NCBI GenBank assembly: GCA_044892525.1
Contig: CM097885.1
Location: 94,736,001 to 94,800,000, forward strand
Origin: Schmidtea polychroa
Taxonomy: Eukaryota
Length of the DNA stretch: 64,000 nucleotides
Reading direction: 5' to 3'
A program made the position numbers and the translations under genes. The stretch's first letter is position 1; every line of letters begins with the position of its first letter. This document shows positions 11,677-62,428 of the stretch, one piece after another. The notes below the pieces were generated by a model. That model saw only the letters and a program-made list of their open reading frames with translations, was not told the origin of the DNA and did no database searches.

Positions 11677-11993
11677 TGTGAGGAGTTAAAATTAAAATAC
11701 TAAATTAAATTAGTTCATGATTAAAATTTGTAAAGTTTTAATTGAAACTTAAATTATTTTAAGATATTAAAATTGAAATGATAATTGAAATTTTAAAATA
11801 AAATAATTTTTAATAAAATTGAAATTCAAGTATGAATGCGATGGTATGTTGATATTTGGTTGAAATTAAAATTTAGAAAATGTCCTAAGAATATTTGTTT
11901 ATATAATCAGATTTAATGAAATATAATTTTGGATTTAATAGTCTTAGTAATTTATTTTGATGACAGAAGAATTAAATGTTATAGCTTCTAACA
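11677..11993 (+). repeat. 5' LTR (TG...CA)
   Basis: TGTGAGGAG...CTTCTAACA; matches 16420-16736 except one T/C. Confidence 0.97.
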
Positions 11994-13078
11994 TGGCGAC
12001 CATTCCAACGGATCTGCTTATTGGAAGATTACTTCCAGAAAAATTCCACAGAGGAGATGACCTCGAATTATTTATCAAAGAATGTCAGAGGTTCTTTGAA
12101 ATAACGAAGACACCAGTGAAGACCCAAATGGTACTAGTTATTACACTTCTGGACAGGACTTTGATTGAAGAATATGAAACCGCAGAAGGCAAAACCGTTG
12201 AACAGAAATTAAGAGCAGCTTTTCATCGACCAACGTCATTGATTGATGAATTAAGAGAAGCCTTGAACTACGAGCAAGGTAACGAATCAGCGGAAATATT
12301 TATAGAGAAAATATCAAAAATGACTAAAAAATTGGCCTCACACACTTGGAATGAGGAAGAAATTCAGAAATGTTTATTGACACATTGTGTAAAAGATAAA
12401 GAAGTCAGGAAAGAAATCGAAATGAAAGATCTCAAAACGGCGGAACAAATTAAAGAAACTATAAAGAAGATAGAAAAAGTTAACAAGGTTATTGAACAAG
12501 TAAACACGGTGAGATCAATACGACCTGCAACTGGAGGAAGAACTTATAGAGATGTAGTACAAGTTGGAGCCACGAAGAGAAAAATCAACGAATGGGAACC
12601 AGAGACAAGAATTAAAGTGATAGAATGCTGGACGTGTCAAAAACCGGGACACAGTAGCAGAGAATGTAATATAAAAAGAAGATTTCAATGTTATGCATGT
12701 GGTGTTGAAGGTCACATACGAAGAGAATGTCCAACAATCAAATGTCATAGATGCAATGCACGAGGACACAAAGAAAGAGAGTGCTACACAAATATGGAAA
12801 GACGAAATCAAGGAAGAGATCGAGACCAAAGGAAGATGTCAGGAGGAAGAGTTCAAAGAAATACCTATCAACAAAGGGAAGATATGTATCAATCAAGGAA
12901 CGTACATCAAAGACAATGGGGAAACCAACAATATAACAGAAAAGATATTGCAGCTATCGAGTCTGATGATGAGATGATGAATACAAAACAGTCAAGCCAG
13001 CCAGACGAGTATAACAGGGAGAATGACCCAAACGAGCACGCTCCGTCAAACGGGACATTGATCGGAGCAATTTACTAA
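11993..13078 (+). CDS. gag: Gag with three CCHC zinc knuckles
   Basis: CWTCQKPGHSSREC, CYACGVEGHIRREC, CHRCNARGHKEREC. The first ATG after the LTR is at 11993. Confidence 0.9.
   Translation: MATIPTDLLIGRLLPEKFHRGDDLELFIKECQRFFEITKTPVKTQMVLVITLLDRTLIEEYETAEGKTVEQKLRAAFHRPTSLIDELREALNYEQGNESAEIFIEKISKMTKKLASHTWNEEEIQKCLLTHCVKDKEVRKEIEMKDLKTAEQIKETIKKIEKVNKVIEQVNTVRSIRPATGGRTYRDVVQVGATKRKINEWEPETRIKVIECWTCQKPGHSSRECNIKRRFQCYACGVEGHIRRECPTIKCHRCNARGHKERECYTNMERRNQGRDRDQRKMSGGRVQRNTYQQREDMYQSRNVHQRQWGNQQYNRKDIAAIESDDEMMNTKQSSQPDEYNRENDPNEHAPSNGTLIGAIY
11994..12002 (+). promoter_or_regulatory. Primer-binding site
   Basis: TGGCGACCA immediately after the LTR CA, complementary to a tRNA 3' end (Arg-UCG-like by recall; not verified). 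Confidence 0.75.
13027..13068 (+). promoter_or_regulatory. -1 programmed ribosomal frameshift signal
   Basis: C_CCA_AAC slippery heptamer in gag frame (13027-33), 6-nt spacer, stem GCTCCG-TCAA / TTGA-(T)-CGGAGC. The pol frame (-1) is open exactly from 13027. Confidence 0.75.
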
Positions 13079-16000
13079 GTAAGATTGATTTCAACCAAAG
13101 AATGAATGCTAACGGTATGTGTAATTTAAGTGTGTATGATGATTGTATGATTGATAAAGATTGTAGTGTTTTTGAACGTGATATTAATAATAATAGTAGT
13201 GTAGAAATCAAAAAGTCGAATGATAAGGAAAGTCAGAAAAAATTTAAAGAGGAGTGTAAAGCAAATGAATTAGTAAAACACGAGGAAAGAACTATAGAGA
13301 AAATTTACAAATTCCTCAAGAAAAATGGAGACGTGTGTATTAATGAAATTGTAGAAGATACTAGAGAGCAGAATATTTTGTCAGTAGAAGAACAAAAAAG
13401 TCCAGTAATAACATATAATATAATGCAAGGTAGACCGAGTACAACACTGGATATCCAAGGGCGGAAAGTAGATTGTTTATTGGATACAGTAGCGCGAATT
13501 AATGTGATGGCTAAATCTGTAATTGATAGATTAGAAAATATCGAAATATTAGAAACAAGGGAATCGCTAAGATGTGCAAACAACAGTAGATTAGAAACTA
13601 TGGGTAAAATAAACATCAATGTTAAAATGGGCAGTATTGAAAGAAATGTAACATTCATTATAGTAAAGAATTTAATACCAGAAATTATTGGAGGAGTAGA
13701 ACTACAAAGGTTATTTGGTATAGAATTGAAATGTATACTAGAAGAACATGAAAAACGTAGTGATTTCATTTGCGAAATAGAAGCTAGATTTGGGCGGATT
13801 ATAACAGATGAAGAAAGATTACGTCATGCCATCGACGTTTTAAAGGTTACCGGAAATAAGGGACTGTTAGAAATATTTCAGGCAAACAAGAATGTTTTTA
13901 TGGCAGATAAATGGGACATTGGGTGTACTAATCTGATAAAACATAAGATCATCACGAAAGGAGAGCCAATAATGATTAAACCGAGACCTCAGCCAATAAA
14001 TTTGGAAGACAAGATTGAGGAAGCAATAAAAAATCTAGAAAACAACGGAATAATTAGGAAGTGTAATTCACCGTGGAACACACCTTTAGTTTGTGTATGG
14101 AAGAAAGAGAAAAAAGACACCAGGCTTTGTCTAGACTTCAGACAATTAAACAAGATAACAGAAAGACAAGCATTTCCAATGCCAAATGTAGATGAAATTT
14201 TAGACATCCTACACGGATCCAGATATTTTAGCTCAATCGACTTGGGAAATGCTTATTACCAGGTGAAGTTAGATAAAGAATCTCAAGAGAAAACAGCATT
14301 CTCAACAAAAGACGGACAGTTCTGTTTTAACAGGATGCCGTTCGGTATTGCAGCGGCACCAGGAACATTTCAAGAATTAATGACGAAAGTATTGAAAGAT
14401 TTGTGGAAAGATGGAGTGATGGTATATTTAGACGACATCCTAATATTTACAAAGACAGAAGAAGACCATTATAACATATTTGGAAAAGTCCTAGGGAAGA
14501 TCGCAACAGCAGGATTAAGATTGAACCCCGAAAAATGTCAAATATTTAGAAAAGAAGTGAAGTTTCTGGGACACATAATAAATAAAGACGGCATACAAAC
14601 AGATAATACTAAGATAGAAGCAATACAATCATTTCAAAAGCCAAAATGTGTAAAGAATCTGAGGAGCTTTTTGGGTATCTGTAATTATTATCGACGGTTC
14701 ATAAAAGACTATGCAAAGAAGGCAAGAGCACTAGAAAGCATATGCGGAAAAAACAATGAGAAAATAAGATGGACAGAGATGTGTGAAAAGGCTTTCGGGG
14801 AAATGAAAGAAGCATTGATAACCGCCCCAGTATTGGTATTTCCAGATTTCAGAAAAGAATTTATATTAGACACAGACGCGAGTTTCGATACTATTGGAGC
14901 AGTTCTTTCGCAAAAGGATGAAAAAGGACATGAACATGTCATTGCATATGGTTCACATGCGATGAGCAGCCACGAAAAAGGATACTGCATTACCAGAAAA
15001 GAATTATTGGCAATATACTATTTTTGTAAACATTTCAACCATTACTTATATGGTAAGAGATTCGTACTGAGAACGGACCATAAAGCTATTACGTTTATGG
15101 TAACAACGAAGAAACCAATAACTGCTCAATTCCAGACGTGGATCAACTATTTAAGCAGCCTGGATATTAAAATGGAATACAGGAAAGGAACAAGCCATAC
15201 AAACGCGGATATGCTATCCAGGAAAACATGCGGAACATGTGTACAGTGTATGATGGAACACGAAGACCCAAAAACCGGCAAAATTAAAACCAGAATATTA
15301 ACAGTAACAGCAGAAGGCGGATATAACAAGTGGCAAAATGACAATATGGAGGTCCAAGAAATAAAGAATAAGTTAGAAAATAAAGATTGTAAGTTCATAA
15401 TGGAAAACAACACGGTACTAACTAAGCAAGGTAAAATATGGATACCGTCAGATAATAGACAGAGGATGATAAAAGAAGTACACGTATTGCTGTGCCATGC
15501 AGGTGCACAGAAAGTAACGAAATATATCCAGAATAACTGCGACATGGAAAATTTAGCAACGGAAGTAAAAAAGGTAATTGAGAACTGCGAAAGATGTCAG
15601 AAAATGAAAACGATAACAACCAAGACAAAGGAGGAAACTCAAACAATAAAGAGTACAGAACCATTCGAGAAGATATATATGGATATATGTGGGCCATTGA
15701 AAGAAACGTTCAACAAAAAGAAATATATTTGCGGAATCATTGACCACTATAGTAAATACATCTCATTAACGGCCATAAACAAGCAAGACGAAAAAACAAT
15801 TAGTGAGACGTTATTAAATAAATGGATATTAAAGTTTGGAGCTCCAAAAGAACTTCATGTAGATTGTGGGAAGAACTTTGAAGCAAGAAGTATAAAAGAA
15901 CTAGCAAAGGCAGCTGGCATTGAATTAATTTTCTCAAGCCCATATCACCATAACACGAATGGTATTATTGAAAGACAATTCAGAACAATCAGAGAGTATA

Positions 16001-16446
16001 TTAACGCGTCATTGAATGAAGGAGGTAGAAAAAACTGGGCTGATATAGTGCCAGAAATAGAATATACTTTAAATGCAACAGTTCAAAAAACAACGGGAGT
16101 AAGCCCAGCAGAGATTATATTTGGGAGGAAAATCGACAGAATGAAATGGTACTGGAATAAAGAAATAAATAGAGAAGATATGGAAAAGAGAATAGAGGAT
16201 GAAACACTAAAACCAAAAATAAGCAAAACAGTGAGAGATTTTGAAATGGAAGATTTGGTTTTGATCAAACAAGAAATTCGAAATAAAGACAATGCAAGGT
16301 GGGAAGGGCCGTACAAAGTGATAAAGAAAATACATGAACGGAGCTACTTACTTAAAGATCAAAATGGGAAGATGGTAGTCAGAAATGTTGAGAAGATCAA
16401 ACATTTTAAAAAAGGGGGATGTGAGGAGTTAAAATTAAAATACTAA
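13027..16446 (+). CDS. pol: Pol polyprotein (protease, RT, RNase H, integrase with GPY/F)
   Basis: LLDTVA (protease site variant), YLDD, TDAS RNase H, HVLLCH..CERC zinc finger, D-D-E core, WEGPY; stop lies inside the 3' LTR. Confidence 0.95.
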   Translation, partial: PKRARSVKRDIDRSNLLSKIDFNQRMNANGMCNLSVYDDCMIDKDCSVFERDINNNSSVEIKKSNDKESQKKFKEECKANELVKHEERTIEKIYKFLKKNGDVCINEIVEDTREQNILSVEEQKSPVITYNIMQGRPSTTLDIQGRKVDCLLDTVARINVMAKSVIDRLENIEILETRESLRCANNSRLETMGKININVKMGSIERNVTFIIVKNLIPEIIGGVELQRLFGIELKCILEEHEKRSDFICEIEARFGRIITDEERLRHAIDVLKVTGNKGLLEIFQANKNVFMADKWDIGCTNLIKHKIITKGEPIMIKPRPQPINLEDKIEEAIKNLENNGIIRKCNSPWNTPLVCVWKKEKKDTRLCLDFRQLNKITERQAFPMPNVDEILDILHGSRYFSSIDLGNAYYQVKLDKESQEKTAFSTKDGQFCFNRMPFGIAAAPGTFQELMTKVLKDLWKDGVMVYLDDILIFTKTEEDHYNIFGKVLGKIATAGLRLNPEKCQIFRKEVKFLGHIINKDGIQTDNTKIEAIQSFQKPKCVKNLRSFLGICNYYRRFIKDYAKKARALESICGKNNEKIRWTEMCEKAFGEMKEALITAPVLVFPDFRKEFILDTDASFDTIGAVLSQKDEKGHEHVIAYGSHAMSSHEKGYCITRKELLAIYYFCKHFNHYLYGKRFVLRTDHKAITFMVTTKKPITAQFQTWINYLSSLDIKMEYRKGTSHTNADMLSRKTCGTCVQCMMEHEDPKTGKIKTRILTVTAEGGYNKWQNDNMEVQEIKNKLENKDCKFIMENNTVLTKQGKIWIPSDNRQRMIKEVHVLLCHAGAQKVTKYIQNNCDMENLATEVKKVIENCERCQKMKTITTKTKEETQTIKSTEPFEKIYMDICGPLKETFNKKKYICGIIDHYSKYISLTAINKQDEKTISETLLNKWILKFGAPKELHVDCGKNFEARSIKELAKAAGIELIFSSPYHHNTNGIIERQFRTIREYINASLNEGGRKNWADIVPEIEYTLNATVQKTTGVSPAEIIFGRKIDRMKWYWNKEINREDMEKRIEDETLKPKISKTVRDFEMEDLVLIKQEIRNKDNARWEGPYKVIKKIHERSYLLKDQNGKMVVRNVEKIKHFKKGGCEELKLKY
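16408..16419 (+). promoter_or_regulatory. Polypurine tract
   Basis: AAAAAAGGGGGA directly before the 3' LTR TG. Confidence 0.85.
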
Positions 16447-16736
16447 ATTAAATTAGTTCATGATTAAAATTTGTAAAGTTTTAATTGAAACTTAAATTAT
16501 TTTAAGATATTAAAATTGAAATGATAATTGAAATTTTAAAATAAAATAATTTTTAATAAAATTGAAATTCAAGTATGAATGCGATGGTATGTTGATATTT
16601 GGTTGAAATTAAAATTTAGAAAATGTCCCAAGAATATTTGTTTATATAATCAGATTTAATGAAATATAATTTTGGATTTAATAGTCTTAGTAATTTATTT
16701 TGATGACAGAAGAATTAAATGTTATAGCTTCTAACA
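16420..16736 (+). repeat. 3' LTR
   Basis: Near-identical to the 5' LTR. Confidence 0.97.
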
Positions 16737-30820: not shown

Positions 30821-31411
30821 AAAACTTTAAATCATGAGTTAAGCTGGCGTTAGCCCGCAGATGAGGAAATATTTTTTTTAAATAAAAACAAGTTGCCTCA
30901 ACTTCAAGTAGTTTACAAAAATAGTCAATCACTTTTTATAATTCAATTTGTTTCCTTATCTTAATAAATACAAAAGTAAAATATATTATATTTCAAAGGG
31001 TATTCCGAAATTATTTAAATTGAAATGGATTATGAAAATAGAAATTATGGAGTTGTTTGGAGGATGTACTCGAAAAATTTCTAAATGTATGTGTAGGTAT
31101 TTATCATAATATTTAATACCGTGAATCCTCCAGACCGTGACTATTCGTACTTTATTTCAAAGTACTGTACTTTGTCTTCAAGCGCCGTACTTTATTTATT
31201 AATACACTTTAAAATGTCTTAAAATTAACAAAAAACAAAGTATTTAATTCCAGCCAACTTCTTTCCATATTTTTGTACGTGGTATGCATTGTTTATTAGG
31301 TGACAATTAAGTGTGGGTAATGATTGGTTTCAGTGAGCAATGCGATTTAATAAAAATGTCCAAGTGTAATGGTGTAAAATATTTTTTTACGGATGTCTAA
31401 CATTAAAATAA

Positions 31412-31629
31412 TATAAACATTACAAGCTTTGTGATACCCAGTGCAAATCCCAATAGTAGACTAGTTTCGAGCTTGTACACTTATTGGGTATTATTGTACA
31501 TATTGTATACTTACCTGGCGCGAAGATAAATCTTCGTGTCTGTTGTATAGTACTGATGAGAGCCAAAAGCTCGAAACTAGTCTACTATTGGGATTTGCAC
31601 TGGGTATCATAAAGCTTGTAATGTTTATA
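31412..31629. repeat. 63-bp inverted repeat (31412-31474 / 31567-31629); Penelope-type inverted pLTR relic
   Basis: One mismatch in 63 bp; the right arm contains the 3' half of a hammerhead ribozyme. Confidence 0.85.
31547..31588 (+). ncRNA. Minimal type I hammerhead ribozyme
   Basis: ATAGTA-CTGATGA-GAGC(CAAAA)GCTC-GAAA-C(TA)G-TC^TACTAT: complete core, 6-bp stem I, 4-bp stem II, palindromic ACTAGT stem III; predicted cut after 31582. Confidence 0.88.
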
Positions 31630-32019
31630 GTACAAATATAAGTTTATATTTTGATTGATTTTTAAATTTGTGAAGGAATTTGTCGAACTTAAAGATAAAT
31701 TAATAAGAAATCACCTATTTTGAGGTTCCCAGATTTTTCAATGTCATTAGTTTAGATACCGATGTTAGTTTTGATGTAATCCTAACAGCAGATAATAAAA
31801 CTTGGATACCCGACAGTAGAGGAATATATTTGTGACGAAACACCATATAAAATTTGTCATGCGAGATCAATGAAAATAAAAGAATATGTATCAAATAACT
31901 TTGAAATGAGAAATATGAGATAAAAAATACAAGATGATTCAAAATTGTGAAAATCTTTCTGAAGTGTAAAGTTCTAACAACTATAACAAAAGAAATAATT
32001 TTTTAAAATCCGGGAACCC

Positions 32020-32320
32020 ATGTTATTTGAAACAATGCATATTGATTTTTGTGGCCAATTGAAACAAACACAATATAGAATGAAATATATTTTTGGAATC
32101 ATCGACCAGTATAGTAAATAGGTCACTTCATACCGTTAAATCTCAAATCGAAAATATCGTAGCAATAGATTTTGTTTTAATTCAAAGCAATACGAATAAC
32201 AACGAAGATGACAGATATTTTAGAACTGTAGAAGTCGTGAAACAATTATATGAAAGAAGATACCAAGTAAAGCATGATAATGGTAACTATTTGATAAGAA
32301 ACGTGGAGTAACTGAAGTCG
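32020..32320 (+). pseudogene. Gypsy integrase C-terminal relic
   Basis: HIDFCGQL.., GIIDQYSK, and EVVKQLYERRYQVKHDNGNYLIRNVE, paralleling the integrase end of the intact element at 15670-16400. Confidence 0.65.
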
Positions 32321-38400: not shown

Positions 38401-39453
38401 TATAGTTGTGGGGGTAGGAAAAGTTGTCTATGTGTAATGGAAAATAAATAAGAGATATCTCAAATATATATATATTAATATACATTTATTGACTATAGTT
38501 GGTTAGATACAACAAAAATGACAAAGTTGACCAATATTCATAAATTAGTAAATGTTAGCAAATGTTACATTTAAAAATATTACCCTAATTATCCATGAAT
38601 TCCTGATGAAGATATATTACGCAAATGATCATCTATTTCTCACTAACTTACATATATGACCATGTTTTTGCTGATTAATATACATAAGTGGTCTAATTTG
38701 TTAAATGATATCCAAATCGTCATGTATTTATTGGAACTATGAATTCGTTAAATTTTATCTCAATTAGTCATACATTGTAACAAAGATATCAAAATTTGAC
38801 TAAATTTTACTTCAAATGATAAAACATTTCTACCAAAATTTCATAAATTACCAATGAAATGTTCTATTAAAATGAGTATGTATTTCTCACGAAGTTGTAT
38901 AAATTTATCAATGAATTTGTTAACCCTACACTGCATGACTTTTTATATTTTATATTTTTACACTTTCACTTAAACTGTAAGACGTTTTAAAAATTGATTT
39001 GGTAATACAAAACTATTGAGAATTAAATTACGGTTTTTGTGTATTATATTGCAAATATAGCCAATACAAAGTAATATGAGAGAACATTTACCGAGAACAA
39101 GAGCGAGACAGTTTTTATTTTAATAAGATAATTGTGTATCACCAGTGATACAATATGCAGTGTAGGATTAAATATTGTCTGACAATGTCCATATTTTACT
39201 TGAATGATATGTGCTTTATAAAATGACCATGTATTTTCTCTAAATGGCTTAAGAATTTCTATATGCTTTTCAAATGATCATGTTTTTATTGATTAGAAAA
39301 ATTAAAATCTAATAATTGAAATAAAAGAAGTAGATATTTATTAAAAAATCATTTTAGATATAAAAACTATAAGTAAATTTTGATTGGTCAAATATAAATA
39401 AATTCAAAATTATTATATTTTTCATCAAAATTAAAGGAAAGTAAATAATTAAA

Positions 39454-40380
39454 ATGTCAATTTTGTCCATAGACGATCAAATAATTTTAAAAAGCTTTCA
39501 AACGGCACTTTTAGGAATTGGTTTCATTTTTAATTCATGGAGCGCTATTATTATGATCAAATATAAGATTTTCTTGTCTACATTCACAAGGATAGTTCTT
39601 CTGAATCAATTTTTGTTTGATACTCTCATTTGTTTACTAACAATCTTTATGTTGTGGATAGTGAAGGATGATTTTGATGAAAATTATGGGCTAGACCGAC
39701 TGATATGCATAGCATGGTCATCGCAAACCTTATATTGGATGTGCGCAACCCTTAGCAATCAAACTCTGGTCTGGACAACATTTGACCGATATCTCGCTGT
39801 CATTTATCCGACTTTTTATAAATTTAAAAAAAAACTATTACTTACTTTTTATTTATTATCAAGTTGTTTGATAAGTTTGTCATTTGGTCTGGAGATTGGA
39901 CTGCTCTCAACCATTAGAAACGGTTCATGCGTCTGGACCCCAACATCAGAAAGTTCATTATTCCGATTGTCATCACTCAGCTATTCGATAATGAATTATT
40001 TTCTTCCAGTTTTTTTATTTATATTTTGTTATTTTCGTGTGATAGTGAAAATGAAAAATCTGAAAAATAAAGACAAGACTGATGGAAGTTTAAAACGATC
40101 AACCATCACATTCACAATTGCGTGTTTCATTAACGTCATTTTATATATTATTTTATTACTAATGGACAACATTATATTTATATTGAGGAGCTTTGATTTG
40201 TTCACCTTTGATGCTGGGTCAGATATTCAGATGATCTCCCTATTTCTGGTCAGCATCAATAGCTGCATCAACCCGTTCATTTATCTTACCGTAATGAGGA
40301 ATTTTAGAAAATATTTTTTTCTCATTAACCTGATAAGCAATCTGAGCAAAGTTGGACCCTCTCGCAGCGTCATAAACTAG
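39454..40380 (+). CDS. Intronless rhodopsin-family (class A) GPCR, 308 aa
   Basis: Seven hydrophobic segments, DRY (TFDRYLAVIYP), TM7 NSCINPFIY, Cys at the top of TM3 (LICIAW) and in ECL2 (GSCVW); ATG to stop intact. Confidence 0.88.
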   Translation: MSILSIDDQIILKSFQTALLGIGFIFNSWSAIIMIKYKIFLSTFTRIVLLNQFLFDTLICLLTIFMLWIVKDDFDENYGLDRLICIAWSSQTLYWMCATLSNQTLVWTTFDRYLAVIYPTFYKFKKKLLLTFYLLSSCLISLSFGLEIGLLSTIRNGSCVWTPTSESSLFRLSSLSYSIMNYFLPVFLFIFCYFRVIVKMKNLKNKDKTDGSLKRSTITFTIACFINVILYIILLLMDNIIFILRSFDLFTFDAGSDIQMISLFLVSINSCINPFIYLTVMRNFRKYFFLINLISNLSKVGPSRSVIN

Positions 40381-45280: not shown

Positions 45281-46265
45281 TGTTGGGTTTTATGATATCA
45301 AAAATCGATAATCGCCGTTGGTTACTCTGACTCCACGTGTTCCAAAAATTAATAAACACAACTCCCAACGTACATTTGTTTTATAGGAAATTTACAATTC
45401 TCAATAAATAACGACACTTTTAGTTAACCACAATTTTCTCACAATTACCGATCGAACTCCGCTCTGGGAGGTCTCAACCTTGTACTATTAAAAATAAGTT
45501 TCATCTTTTTGCTTGATTCCGCTCTCTGAGTCGAACTCTTTTAATATTCCTTTTCGACTTCTCGATTCCTCTTATAATTCTTTTCTTCTTTTATTTTATT
45601 CCTCGAAATTCTATCGTCTGTTTCTTCTTCCCTACCTAAGACTACCGATGATTATTCTGAGTTTCCTTTTATACTCCCATAATCATTGTAATTGCCCCAT
45701 TTTCGACCTAATTGGTTTTGACTTCTTTAGTTATCATTCCCTAATTAGCTTTTTCTGTTGACCCTCTTCGTAATTCCCCTTTTTTTGTTTACCCTCGTTT
45801 ATCCGATTGTTTGGATAATTGCCGTCTGAATTCCTGTTTGCTTACCTTTACAAACTGCCGTGCTCGGGTTTTCTTCATCCCTCGGGTTCTCCAATGTCTC
45901 GGGCTTCTCATTAGCTCGGGTTTCCCATTAGCCAATTAATTAATTAATTTTACGTTTTTTTCATATTTGTCTGTTTTACGACCTTTTCTAAACATTTTCT
46001 AATAATTTCCTGCTCACTGTCTTCTTCACCATCCCCTAATCTACCCCTCTCCCGTTTTCCAGCTTCAATTTCGATAACTTTTCACTTTATTCCACTTCCT
46101 CAGATTTGCGCATTTTTCCATTTCGTGTCTGATTGTACCCATTTATAGTTCTGTTTTTATCATATCTTTCTTTGCCATTGCTTCTCTGCATGACCGTCAT
46201 TCAATTTCGGTTTTCCTTTTTATCTGAACTATATACTTTAATAATTTGCTTTTAAAACCTCAACA
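45281..46265 (-). mobile_element. Solo LTR (985 bp), close relative of 61452-62428
   Basis: TGTTGGG...CCTCAACA; 4-bp TSD AATT; collinear reverse-complement homology to 61452-62428. Confidence 0.92.
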
Positions 46266-46889
46266 AATTAAAATTTATGGTACAATATTTTGAAGGATCG
46301 ACGTCCTATAAGAATTTTAAAAAAGTAAAGAAATTTTCGTTGCAAATTTTTATGAAATAAATTTTCAAAGATAGTTTGATATGCAAAGTAAGCAGCTCCA
46401 TTCACTACACAGCTCTTTCTATTCACTAAGCATCATGCTCTATATAATTAAATCATGTACACAATAAATAAGTAACCAGCTAAAACTGCTATTTCTTCAG
46501 TGTATTTTATCAAATGTTTTTGAAATAAATTAGTTTTTTATTTGTGTTAAAATTCAAAAATATTTTTAACTAAATTGCAATCAGAAGTTAAGAAAACCTT
46601 TTCTGCTTAACTATAATGTAGTTTAAATTTAACAAAAATGCTAAGTTTTAAAAGAGAATAATTGGCAACTCAGTCATTGTAAAATAATACAACACCGCGT
46701 TCAAATGAATGGTGAAAAATGAACTAGTTAACACCCAATTAACGTAATACTAAATTATTAATAACGAACCTACTAAATTGATGGGTGGTAATATTTAAAA
46801 GTTACCAATTAAATTTCTGACTCCAAAGCGTGTTTTATCTGACCCACAAAATAACAATGCTCAGACAAGATAAACCTTTCTTTATTTTC

Positions 46890-49110: not shown

Positions 49111-50374
49111 TCACAATATGGTAAGTTTTGGGTCGTTATGCATATAGGGCATATAAAGTATATAAAGAGAATAACCGTTCTTCATTAATAATACAACCAA
49201 TATGTCAATACTTTTTACTGAATTTTTAAAAGTAGAAGACCATGCACGATAAATCAACCCCTTCACCATATTTCTTTTATACTTGAATTCACAAAAACTT
49301 TCGGAAGAAGTATAGAGACCAGTATCAGTTAGTTTTTTCTGTCTCATAGTGTTTCTCTTTGCGTTGTATTAACAGATCCAAGAAAGCAAGCGATGATTTT
49401 TTCTCCGTTTCACATGTGAATGCAATGTTTTATGTAGACTATTCGTATAATGCAAAAACGGGTCAACATGCCTCTGATTTTCAAATATAAGAAAAATATC
49501 ATCCACATACCGTTTATAAACAGTGGGTTTCATACCGTGGAAAGATGCAATTTTCTTTTCTAAGCTTGTTAATAAAATTGAAGCCATCGTTGGTGCTAAA
49601 GGAGAACCCATAGCAACTCCATCTATTTGTTGATACCATTCATTATTGAAAAGAACATTGATTTTTGAAGTTGCAAATACAAGAAGTTCACGAAATACTG
49701 TCTATCCAAAATATGATGTTCAGAAATATTTTCATTCCATAAAAAGCAACATAATTCAATTGTTTCAACCAATTAGTAAACCAATTAGTAAACAGACTGC
49801 AAACATCAAACGAAACCATAATTTCATCCATACTTTGTCTATCATATTGTGCAATGCAGGAAACAAATTCAAAACTATCTTTACATTCAAATTCTGATCG
49901 TATTAATGGTTTCAATAATCCATTCAAAAATTTGGCTATTTTATACTGGGCAGTGCCAATCATGAATAAAACAGGTCTCATAGGCACGCCATCTTTATGG
50001 ATTTTTGGAAGCCCATACATTTTTGCTGGTTGTGATCCCATTGGGCGAATAGATTTAAACAACTCTTCATCAATTTGCTTATTTTTAATTAATTTATTCA
50101 GTATTTCTTTCAACAAATCCTCATCCTTAACAGCAGGCTGTATTCCATTTTTTCGAGAAATCTCTATTTCCACCAACTAGGGAGCATTCAAAACATCATT
50201 AAGCTTATTTACATATACATCGTGGTCGAGAATTACCAATCCATTTCCTTTGTCAAACTTGTATATATTGATGTCTTTTTTAGCTAAATTTTTTAATACA
50301 GTAAAATCTTTAATATCAATATACTCCATCGTACTCGACACACTCTTCACATAATTAGTATTAATATCCTTCAT
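49111..50374 (-). pseudogene. Penelope-like retroelement RT relic (frameshifted, GIY-YIG missing)
   Basis: DKGNGLVILD; MYGLPKIHK..PMRP..GTAQYKIAKFL; SFDVCSLFTN; MGSPLAP; YKRYVDDIF; KLTDTGLY. Confidence 0.9.
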
Positions 50375-59497: not shown

Positions 59498-61451
59498 AAA
59501 TTGTTCAATAGATCCAGGCGATAAATGTATACATTTGATTTTAGGTATACCCAGAGGGAAAAATGACATGGATTCAATTCAGGAGATCGGGCCGGCAACT
59601 GAAATCATTTTGGAACGAAATTAGATGACCCAGGAATATTTCCCTCGAAATTTTAATTGTGTTGGGCTAGAACCGAAGATTGAGAGTTTGTTTTAATGAA
59701 TCGAAAATACATAACATAAAATACGCACCAAGTTGAATTAAAATCCATGATCATACACCAAATAATACAAAATATAGTACATAACACATTGAGAATAAAT
59801 AAAACATGTATAGTAAAATCAAGAAACACAAAAAAATAGAATCACCGACACAGTTAAGAGAAATATCGCATTTAGGAAACCTGTCAACTAGAAAATAAAA
59901 TAATAATAAAAAAAATAATTGATAATAAATTAATTAATAATATGAAAAGAAATGTTAAGAAGGATTATTGGTCGTATTTACATACGAAGGACCATAATCA
60001 AATTAAATAGGAATGTAATGGCTCGTATTTACATACAAAGGAGCTGTGACAATGAGTGCATACTTTGAGAAAGGGAACAGGAAAATTTCATTTAAAAATT
60101 AAATGAAATAAAATAAAGAAATAAATACATTTAAAAATTGAAAGTAAAGAAATTCCAGTAGAACTGATAAAATAATAAAAATTAAAATAAAATTTGTTAA
60201 CATTATGTAATTTATAAAGTTTATAGAATTAAATGGGTAAAATTAATGAAAATTAAAATAAAATTACCTTATTAATTATTTAAATTATAATGTATAAAAA
60301 ATTAAATTGTTGAAATTAATAAAAATTAAATAAATTAATTAATTAAATCAATTAAATTAAAAATAAATAATATACACACTCATGCATGCATCGAAAGTAA
60401 TTCAAATGTTAGTGCATTCTGATTGGATCTAGTGAAGAGAAAGCATGGATGCACAGTCAAAATCAGTATAAATACTTATTGAAAATTCAGTTAAACAACA
60501 CAACAACAACTGGTTTTTCAACTTAAATTTATAACTTTTTTTGATTTTGATATTGTAACCTGCTCTCAATTTTCGGTTTATGCCATCGTGGTATTGGATT
60601 TGGTAATTTTATTTTAATGTATAATTTTTATGTAATGTTTAAGTAATTATGTAATGTTTTGAGTAATTAAAAATTAAATTATTCAATGTTTTATAAGTGA
60701 TATTGTAATAAGGTAAATATTCATAAATATTTTGTAAAACACACTAAAATTTATTAACAGAAACATAAGGGCGGATTCCTGCTAAAATATTTGAAGGTAA
60801 CATTAGCAAACATCCAGAAATGTGGACCACAATGAAATGCATATGTTGGATAATGAGGGTAGGCCCATCGCCACATTTAACCTCAACAAGTACTACAAGA
60901 CGGGGCCTAGAATGTACCGGGTCAACATACATGTCGAAGAAAAACAATAGATCAACATGAAAGGTAAACAATATCAATACAACCCAAAAGTCCAATTCAA
61001 TACAATCCAAAAACAATCAAACGGATATATCTAACTGACAATCATTATCCCTTGTGATTTTATTAACTATACATCTAATTGACAATGTATATATTTTTAT
61101 TATGACAATCATCTAATTTAGTGACAATTCCTATTTTAATTATTGTACTCTTTATTGATATTTTATTTTTGTTGTACAGTTATTTATTAATTTATTTAAT
61201 ATATCTTATACACAATTAATATTTATTTTTACAAAAGGGTAAAAGTAATGGGTATAAAAAAATAATTAATATTTTTTAAGTTAAAAGTTCACAATTCATT
61301 TTAACACAATAGGATATGAAAATATCAATATTTCTAAAATATAACATCTGCCATATGAATAATAAGTCAGAAATAAACATCTGTAAAATAAATTAATATT
61401 AATAGACAATATTATCAACAAATAAGTCAGATATATTATTAAAAATAAATA

Positions 61452-62428
61452 TGTTGAGGTTTGAAAATAAATTATTAAATTATATAGTTCAGATTAAAAG
61501 GAAAGCCGAAATTGAATGGCGGTCAAGCAGAGAAGCAATGGCAAAGAAAGATATGATAAAAACAGAACTATAAAAGGGTACAATCAGACATGAAATGGGA
61601 AAATGCGCAAACCGGAGGAAGTGGAATAAAGTGAAAAGTTATCGAAATTGAAGCTGGAAAACGGGAGAGGGGTAGATTAAGGGATGGTGAAGAAGACAGT
61701 GAGCAAGAAATTGTTAGAAAATGTGTAGAAAGGGTCGTAAAACAGACAAATGTGGAAAAACGTAAAATATTAATTAATTAATTAATTGGCTAATGGGAAA
61801 CCCGAGCTAATGGGAAGCCCGAGTCAATGGAGAACCCGAGCGATGAAGAAAACCCGAGCACGGCAATTTGGAAGGGTAAACAAACGAGGAATTCAGAGGG
61901 CAATTATCCAAACAATCGGATAAACGAGGGTTAACAAAAGACAGGGAATTACGAAGAGGGTCAACAAAAATAGTCAATTAGGGAATGATAGCTGAAGAAG
62001 TCAAAACCAATTAGGTCAAAAATGGGGCAATTACAACGATTATGGGAGTATATAAGGAAACTCAAAATTCACATAATCGGCGATAGCCTTAGGTAGGGAT
62101 ACGAAGAAACAGACGATAGGAGTTCGAGGAATAAAAATAAAAAGGAAAAAGGAATTATAAGAGGAATTTAGGAATCAGAAAGGAATATTAAAAGAGTTCG
62201 GATCAGAGAGCGGAATCAAACAAAAGGTGAAACCTATTTTTTAAATCGTACAAGGCCGAGACCTTCCAGAGCGGAGTTCGATCTGAAATTGTGTAAGAAT
62301 TGTGATTAACCAATAGTGTGATTAATTGTTGAGTTGTGAATTGTTATAAAACAAATATACGTTGGGAGTTTTTGTTTATTGATTTTGGAACACGTGTAGT
62401 CAGAGTAACCAACGGTTGATTTTGATAT
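61452..62428 (+). mobile_element. LTR lacking its final 14 nt, abutting an inverted 36-nt LTR end
   Basis: TGTTGAGG start, AACCCGAG x4 module, TATA-like GTATATAAGG (~62048); collinear with 45281-46265. Confidence 0.88.

Follow-up and report, generated by a model that had tools for sequence, protein, structure and literature searches.

The stretch of Schmidtea polychroa DNA analysed here (hereafter the window) comprises 64,000 nucleotides. At 31365..31629 it contains an insertion in which a non-coding unit of 378 nt is present twice, as 5'-truncated copies arranged head-to-head. Positions in the unit are given on a ruler, r1-r378, which is the natural copy L005:925-1302, with CUGAUGA at r252 and the predicted ribozyme cut at r281. 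The left arm (31365..31474, minus strand) is an inverted 5'-truncated copy that corresponds to r266-r371; it lacks CUGAUGA on its strand and is 99% identical across 110 nt to another natural copy, L013. The direct copy (31500..31629, plus strand) runs from r199 to about r328, where it stops at the short 3' end of the family. It carries a hairpin typical of the family at 31517..31540 (plus strand) and, immediately 3' of this, a hammerhead ribozyme motif at 31541..31593 (plus strand) with its conserved core at 31553-31582. Between the two copies lies a junction filler of 25 nt (31475..31499), whose matches to the reference unit and to the flanking sequence (about 460 nt on either side) do not exceed 7 nt. 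By eye, the filler resembles short pieces of the termini of the element or of the right flank in inverted orientation.

An earlier note on this DNA had begun the left arm at 31412. Its homology to the family continues for another 47 nt to 31365, and this 3' extension or "tail" (31365..31411, minus strand), which is present on the left arm only, had been overlooked. The complementarity between the upstream arm and the 3' half of the ribozyme that the note had reported is confirmed: the segment 31567..31629 of the direct copy (plus strand) pairs with 31412-31474 over 63 bp, with 62 Watson-Crick pairs and one G·U, and the only difference between the arms in this stretch is G31431 versus T31610, which would form the G·U pair in RNA. 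The full inverted repeat spans 66 nt (31409-31474 and 31567-31632) at 97% identity. No target-site duplication is visible around the insertion, and the right flank, which was used to seek an empty site, yielded only a decayed repeat that begins about 146 nt away. The copy is a solo fragment outside any (AAT)n tract. As the note had stated, no reverse transcriptase (RT) frame is adjacent: there is no frame of a Penelope-like element (PLE) at the locus, and the neighbour at 31852-32127 is a decayed integrase remnant in an old dispersed repeat, unrelated to the hammerhead and 33% identical to the pol of an LTR element elsewhere in the window.

All nucleotides of the catalytic core are present, as had been noted, and together they make up a complete type I hammerhead motif. 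Helix I pairs AUAGUA (31547-31552) with UACUAU (31583-31588) over 6 bp and has a distal extension; the core consists of CUGAUGA (31553-31559) and GAAA (31573-31576); helix II is the 4-bp stem GAGC-CAAAA-GCUC (31560-31572); and helix III is formed by the palindrome ACUAGU (31576-31581), which is indeed of the dimer type. The cleavage triplet GUC ends at C31582, after which the cut is predicted. When the window was scanned with a descriptor on both strands, no other motif with a canonical core was found. Rfam gave no match in the window at the gathering threshold; below it, the motif matches Hammerhead_HH9 (E 0.0022, 23 bits, cut-off 52 bits). A further Rfam match, to MIR4208, was discarded as a generic long hairpin.

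The motif had been called "minimal". This label is wrong, since the motif matches the definition of the canonical metazoan type I hammerhead in PMC4209133: a helix I of 6 bp, a helix II of 4 bp, and a helix III of 1-2 bp with a small palindromic loop, so that a dimer is needed. The minimal hammerheads of PLE pseudo-LTRs described there share with our motif the type I topology, the predicted dependence on dimers and the position near the 3' end. However, they either lack helix III or combine a helix II of 7-8 bp with a helix I of 4-5 bp, whereas the motif in the window has a helix I of 6 bp with a distal extension, a helix II of 4 bp and a helix III. Judged by sequence, it is thus a canonical type I hammerhead. 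The family has a distal part of helix I, and the window copy is altered there: its bases at 31542, 31543 and 31546 are not the commonest ones (C in 56, 53 and 54 of 63 copies, respectively).

The 30-nt core was used as a pattern to search the genome (781 Mb). There were 873 exact copies and none of the reversed control, so the motif cannot be a chance occurrence; a relaxed core pattern gave 1,626 matches versus 70 for its control. The copies repeat with a period of 378 nt in arrays of two to four units, among them arrays of four (L005/L059) and three (L062). The genome therefore holds a large family of the kind that the note had proposed to look for, with both tandem and free-standing copies. 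There are two main subfamilies and one variant at 79%, and the short unit is retained in all of them. The unit has no coding capacity (stop-free frames in the L005 array reach at most 63 aa in sense and 89 aa on the other strand) and a GC content of 36%. Folded as a circle, one natural monomer reaches a predicted -122.3 kcal/mol (z -8.2) with 68% of its bases paired, and none of 100 shuffled sequences was as stable. Covariation across ten aligned units is negligible, with two-sided changes in 2 of 97 pairs and an unfavourable covariation term, and many copies have changes in helix II without a matching change in the partner strand. Four contig-level runs, the RNA status of which is a guess, cover the unit and are uninformative on strand, ends or circles. 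In run X6, from a second organism, the depth on L005:925-1700 is concentrated on the ribozyme core and the flanks diverge into other sequence; some of these flanks contain a different upstream hairpin, which hints at a related family in that organism.

The proposal that this is a small non-autonomous ribozyme-bearing retroelement is borne out. Non-LTR retrozymes of metazoans have been described by Cervera and de la Peña (2020, PMC7229834) and Li et al. (2026, 10.64898/2026.07.22.740005) as non-coding tandem units of 150-450 bp with one canonical type I hammerhead each, a GC content below 50%, no LTR and a predicted, highly self-paired circle, in genomes where PLEs co-exist. Our family has the tandem unit, the low GC content, the circle fold, no apparent LTR and, as far as frame length can tell, no coding sequence, and it co-exists with PLEs; its helix III, one pair closed by a palindromic tetraloop, resembles that of the axolotl HHR_Amex1, which is described as an efficient cleaver only as a dimer. 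By these sequence criteria the family is a non-LTR retrozyme, for which cleavage and circular RNA are predictions. It differs from the retrozymes described in that work in that it consists mainly of dispersed truncated monomers with short arrays (at most four units seen).

To characterize the insertions, 60 loci were taken in position order from the list of exact matches, beginning at the start of contig C1 and blind to structure; three places were skipped. Of 89 blocks, 76 have their 3' end at one of two sites, r325-336 (48 blocks) or r355-378 (28 blocks). The ends of the retrozyme do not coincide with the ribozyme cut but lie past it in the 3' direction, by about 52 nt at one site and 90-97 nt at the other. 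The 5' ends, in contrast, are scattered over all nine 40-nt bins of the unit. Head-to-head pairs were found in 17 of the 60 loci and a tail-to-tail pair in one, and an antisense arm that spans the cut site is present in ten. Among the 14 of 18 junctions in which both outer ends are canonical, the tail is on one arm in nine, on neither in five and on both in none. The window locus conforms to this pattern, with the tail on the left and the short end on the right. Inversion breakpoints range from r1 to r351. At some junctions the two copies overlap by a few bases, and at others they are separated by filler, the longest being 41 nt within the sample and 60 nt at L016. In 17 of the 60 loci r1 continues directly into r378 of the preceding unit, for up to four units.

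These features correspond to those of PLE insertions, which are described in PMC8557442 and PMC3846280 as 5'-truncated, with a second truncated copy in inverted orientation at the 5' end and with a tail of 30-40 bp at one end; according to PMC11167929, the tail is the segment between two RT start sites. The retrozyme family shares with the insertions of endonuclease-bearing PLEs in these three papers the 5' truncation, the partial tandems, the head-to-head inverted copy and AT-rich or microsatellite targets, and its one-sided tail is about 38-45 nt long. Unlike them, it has an ORF-less unit and a canonical rather than a minimal hammerhead, and there is no target-site duplication at the window locus.

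We thus consider the locus, with high though not complete confidence, to be a dead-on-arrival insertion of an ORF-less non-LTR retrozyme that was written by the RT and endonuclease of a PLE. Tandem copies would be transcribed and cut via hammerhead dimers, which are conceivable because ACUAGU is self-complementary, and the products may circularize. The PLE enzyme would then start cDNA synthesis at either of the two sites about 52 or 90-97 nt past the cut, synthesis would stop early, and two such products would be joined 5'-to-5' with filler between them. PLE mobilization of animal retrozymes has already been proposed from co-occurrence and phylogeny (PMC7229834; 10.64898/2026.07.22.740005), and a term search of the main texts of these two papers found no mention of tails, truncation or inverted retrozyme copies. 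Among the openly accessible papers that our literature search covered, none was found to describe this family or retrozyme insertions with tails or inverted copies. The family itself may already be catalogued in repeat databases. The window locus is an ordinary dead copy and the family is of modest value; what is mildly new is the presence of PLE-type scars on an ORF-less retrozyme, so that a non-coding retrozyme displays them directly in a genome that also offers an intact PLE in many copies.

The alternative that fares best, though we regard it as improbable, is that there is no independent retrozyme and that the copies are 3' stumps (pseudo-LTRs) of an autonomous PLE yet to be found. The architecture of the insertions is indistinguishable from that of the truncated PLE insertions described in PMC8557442 and PMC3846280, the loci examined number about 90, in a family with more than 800 cores, and the scoring of GIY-YIG loci covered the best 150 of 2,572 candidates. 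However, the long copies pass from r1 into r378 of a previous unit, and 84 upstream flanks have no common ORF-like extension; the 15 pairs of flanks that do share sequence represent the same place twice, segmental duplicates or a group of AT-rich neighbours. The retention of the short unit in both subfamilies and in the 79% variant also argues against stumps. Among 68 GIY-YIG loci (the 12 top matches and 56 of 143 listed), none has the unit as the terminal repeat of an autonomous PLE, and in the three with a match to the unit, this match is not in the terminal repeat of the PLE itself. A search of the genome with the Pfam RT model was dominated by stronger matches, all of non-PLE type, and did not lead to a partner.

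The inverted arm had been read in the earlier note as a built-in antisense lock, such that a transcript would choose between hairpin and ribozyme. The hairpin (31409-31632) has a predicted energy of -135.8 kcal/mol, and a fold in which the hammerhead is forced in the presence of the left arm is 41.2 kcal/mol worse; without the left arm this gap is 8.4 kcal/mol (7.8 for L005). Since the hairpin is more stable by 41 kcal/mol and its arm is transcribed first, no switching is predicted, and there would be no choice to make. Folding predictions suggest that read-through RNA of the window copy is likely locked in the 63-bp hairpin and does not cleave itself; as a solo copy, it also has no dimer partner in cis. 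Nor is the arm a built-in part. It represents another copy of the unit, inverted and 5'-truncated, of a kind that is absent from 43 of the 60 loci and has scattered breakpoints. Every copy begins at its 3' end, and only 50-80 nt separate the short end from the ribozyme, so that an inverted pair would cover the ribozyme automatically once its arms exceed this length; on this reading, the lock is a matter of geometry rather than design. The "antisense lock" is thus likely an ordinary back-to-back duplicate left by a Penelope-type insertion. About one sixth of the sampled copies, if transcribed, would form a hairpin over the ribozyme and are a possible source of silencing RNA as a by-product.

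That the arm is instead a selected switch, which silences the ribozyme or feeds the 63-bp hairpin into small-RNA pathways, appears to us very improbable. The hairpin is predicted to be very stable, its arms differ at only one of 63 positions, and the arm of a second locus, L016, stops at the identical base r266 (that of L002 at r267). A young insertion alone would give the same high arm identity, however, and a selected arm is hard to reconcile with breakpoints that range so widely, with the many loci that lack an inverted arm, with the private changes of the window copy in distal helix I and with the lack of any alternative fold within 41 kcal/mol of the hairpin. We give still less credence to an inversion that postdates the insertion (DNA fold-back repair) or to an assembly artefact: the 25-nt filler is of the kind found at repaired breaks, but the orientation bias (17 head-to-head pairs versus one tail-to-tail), the base that differs between the arms and their stops at different canonical 3' ends, which is impossible for a fold-back copy of one arm, speak against both.

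For the preferred reading, insertion by a PLE enzyme, a candidate mobilizer is encoded at L044:2216-4783 (G000:C2, at about 183.47 Mb), where an intact frame of 856 aa combines RT and GIY-YIG domains. The family of this element has at least 144 copies at 96-100% identity over a 267-aa query, including head-to-head pairs, and its tail ends 94 nt past its own predicted cut site, as compared with 90-97 nt in the retrozyme. A piece of its terminal repeat is found in 13 of the 60 retrozyme loci but in only one of the 35 tiles that served as background (Fisher p 0.015), a background that is small and non-random. (AAT)8 tracts occur in 31 of the 60 loci versus two of the 35 tiles, and the co-location may reflect a shared preference for (AAT)n alone. 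The similarity between the terminal repeat and the retrozyme unit is no better than that of shuffled sequences (109 of 500, 83 of 500 and 120 of 300 were as good). The footprint points to a PLE enzyme, with L044 as a candidate only. A fuller account, in which the fingerprint of PLE RT is complete, the cDNA crosses the cut on a template that is either a circle or a multimer left uncleaved, and the 856-aa PLE moves the retrozyme in trans although the two have no clear sequence in common, is offered tentatively, as one that we would expect to fail slightly more readily than to hold. If L044 does mobilize the retrozyme in trans, an enzyme and its passenger would be ready to hand for the question of what mobilizes animal retrozymes. 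At L102:953-1820, a piece of an L044-type PLE and a piece of the retrozyme meet in a head-to-head junction with about 7 nt of overlap. We dropped this locus as evidence for co-integration, since both outer ends are non-canonical and a later deletion would explain the arrangement equally well.

The terminal repeat of L044 contains a motif that resembles a hammerhead but has a core of the U3/A8 type (UUGACAA), with 2,922 matches in the genome versus none for the control; covariation of U3 and A8 is known (PMC3088659). A solo piece of an L044-family terminal repeat lies in the window at 161-252, and a fragment of a PLE-type RT, 31% identical to that of L044, at 49423-49650. The elements of a second GIY-YIG family (L056:4490, L153, L057) end in a hammerhead-like motif of the U3/A8 type, with a UUGAAAA core and a short helix II. 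A third PLE family (L137, L163-L182) is older and decayed, its top 20 copies being 87-93% identical to L137, and has a canonical CUGAUGA core. Short AT-rich words on either side of the ribozyme are common to this family and the retrozyme. In comparison with shuffled sequences this similarity is borderline (2 of 1000 for L050; 70 and 79 of 1000 for L137) and concerns AT-rich sequence chosen by eye. A blastn search of the unit against 20 further loci of the third family gave no match.

Several other features of the window were recorded. A Ty3/gypsy-type LTR retrotransposon occupies 11677-16736, with 317-bp LTRs that are 99.7% identical, a zinc-knuckle frame at 11951-13078 and an open pol frame of 1139 aa at 13027-16446. 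A single frame of 311 aa at 39445-40380 encodes a receptor of the rhodopsin family with seven transmembrane segments. Finally, an inverted pair of 983 bp at 88% identity is found at 45315-46277 and 61440-62415, its members separated by 15 kb.
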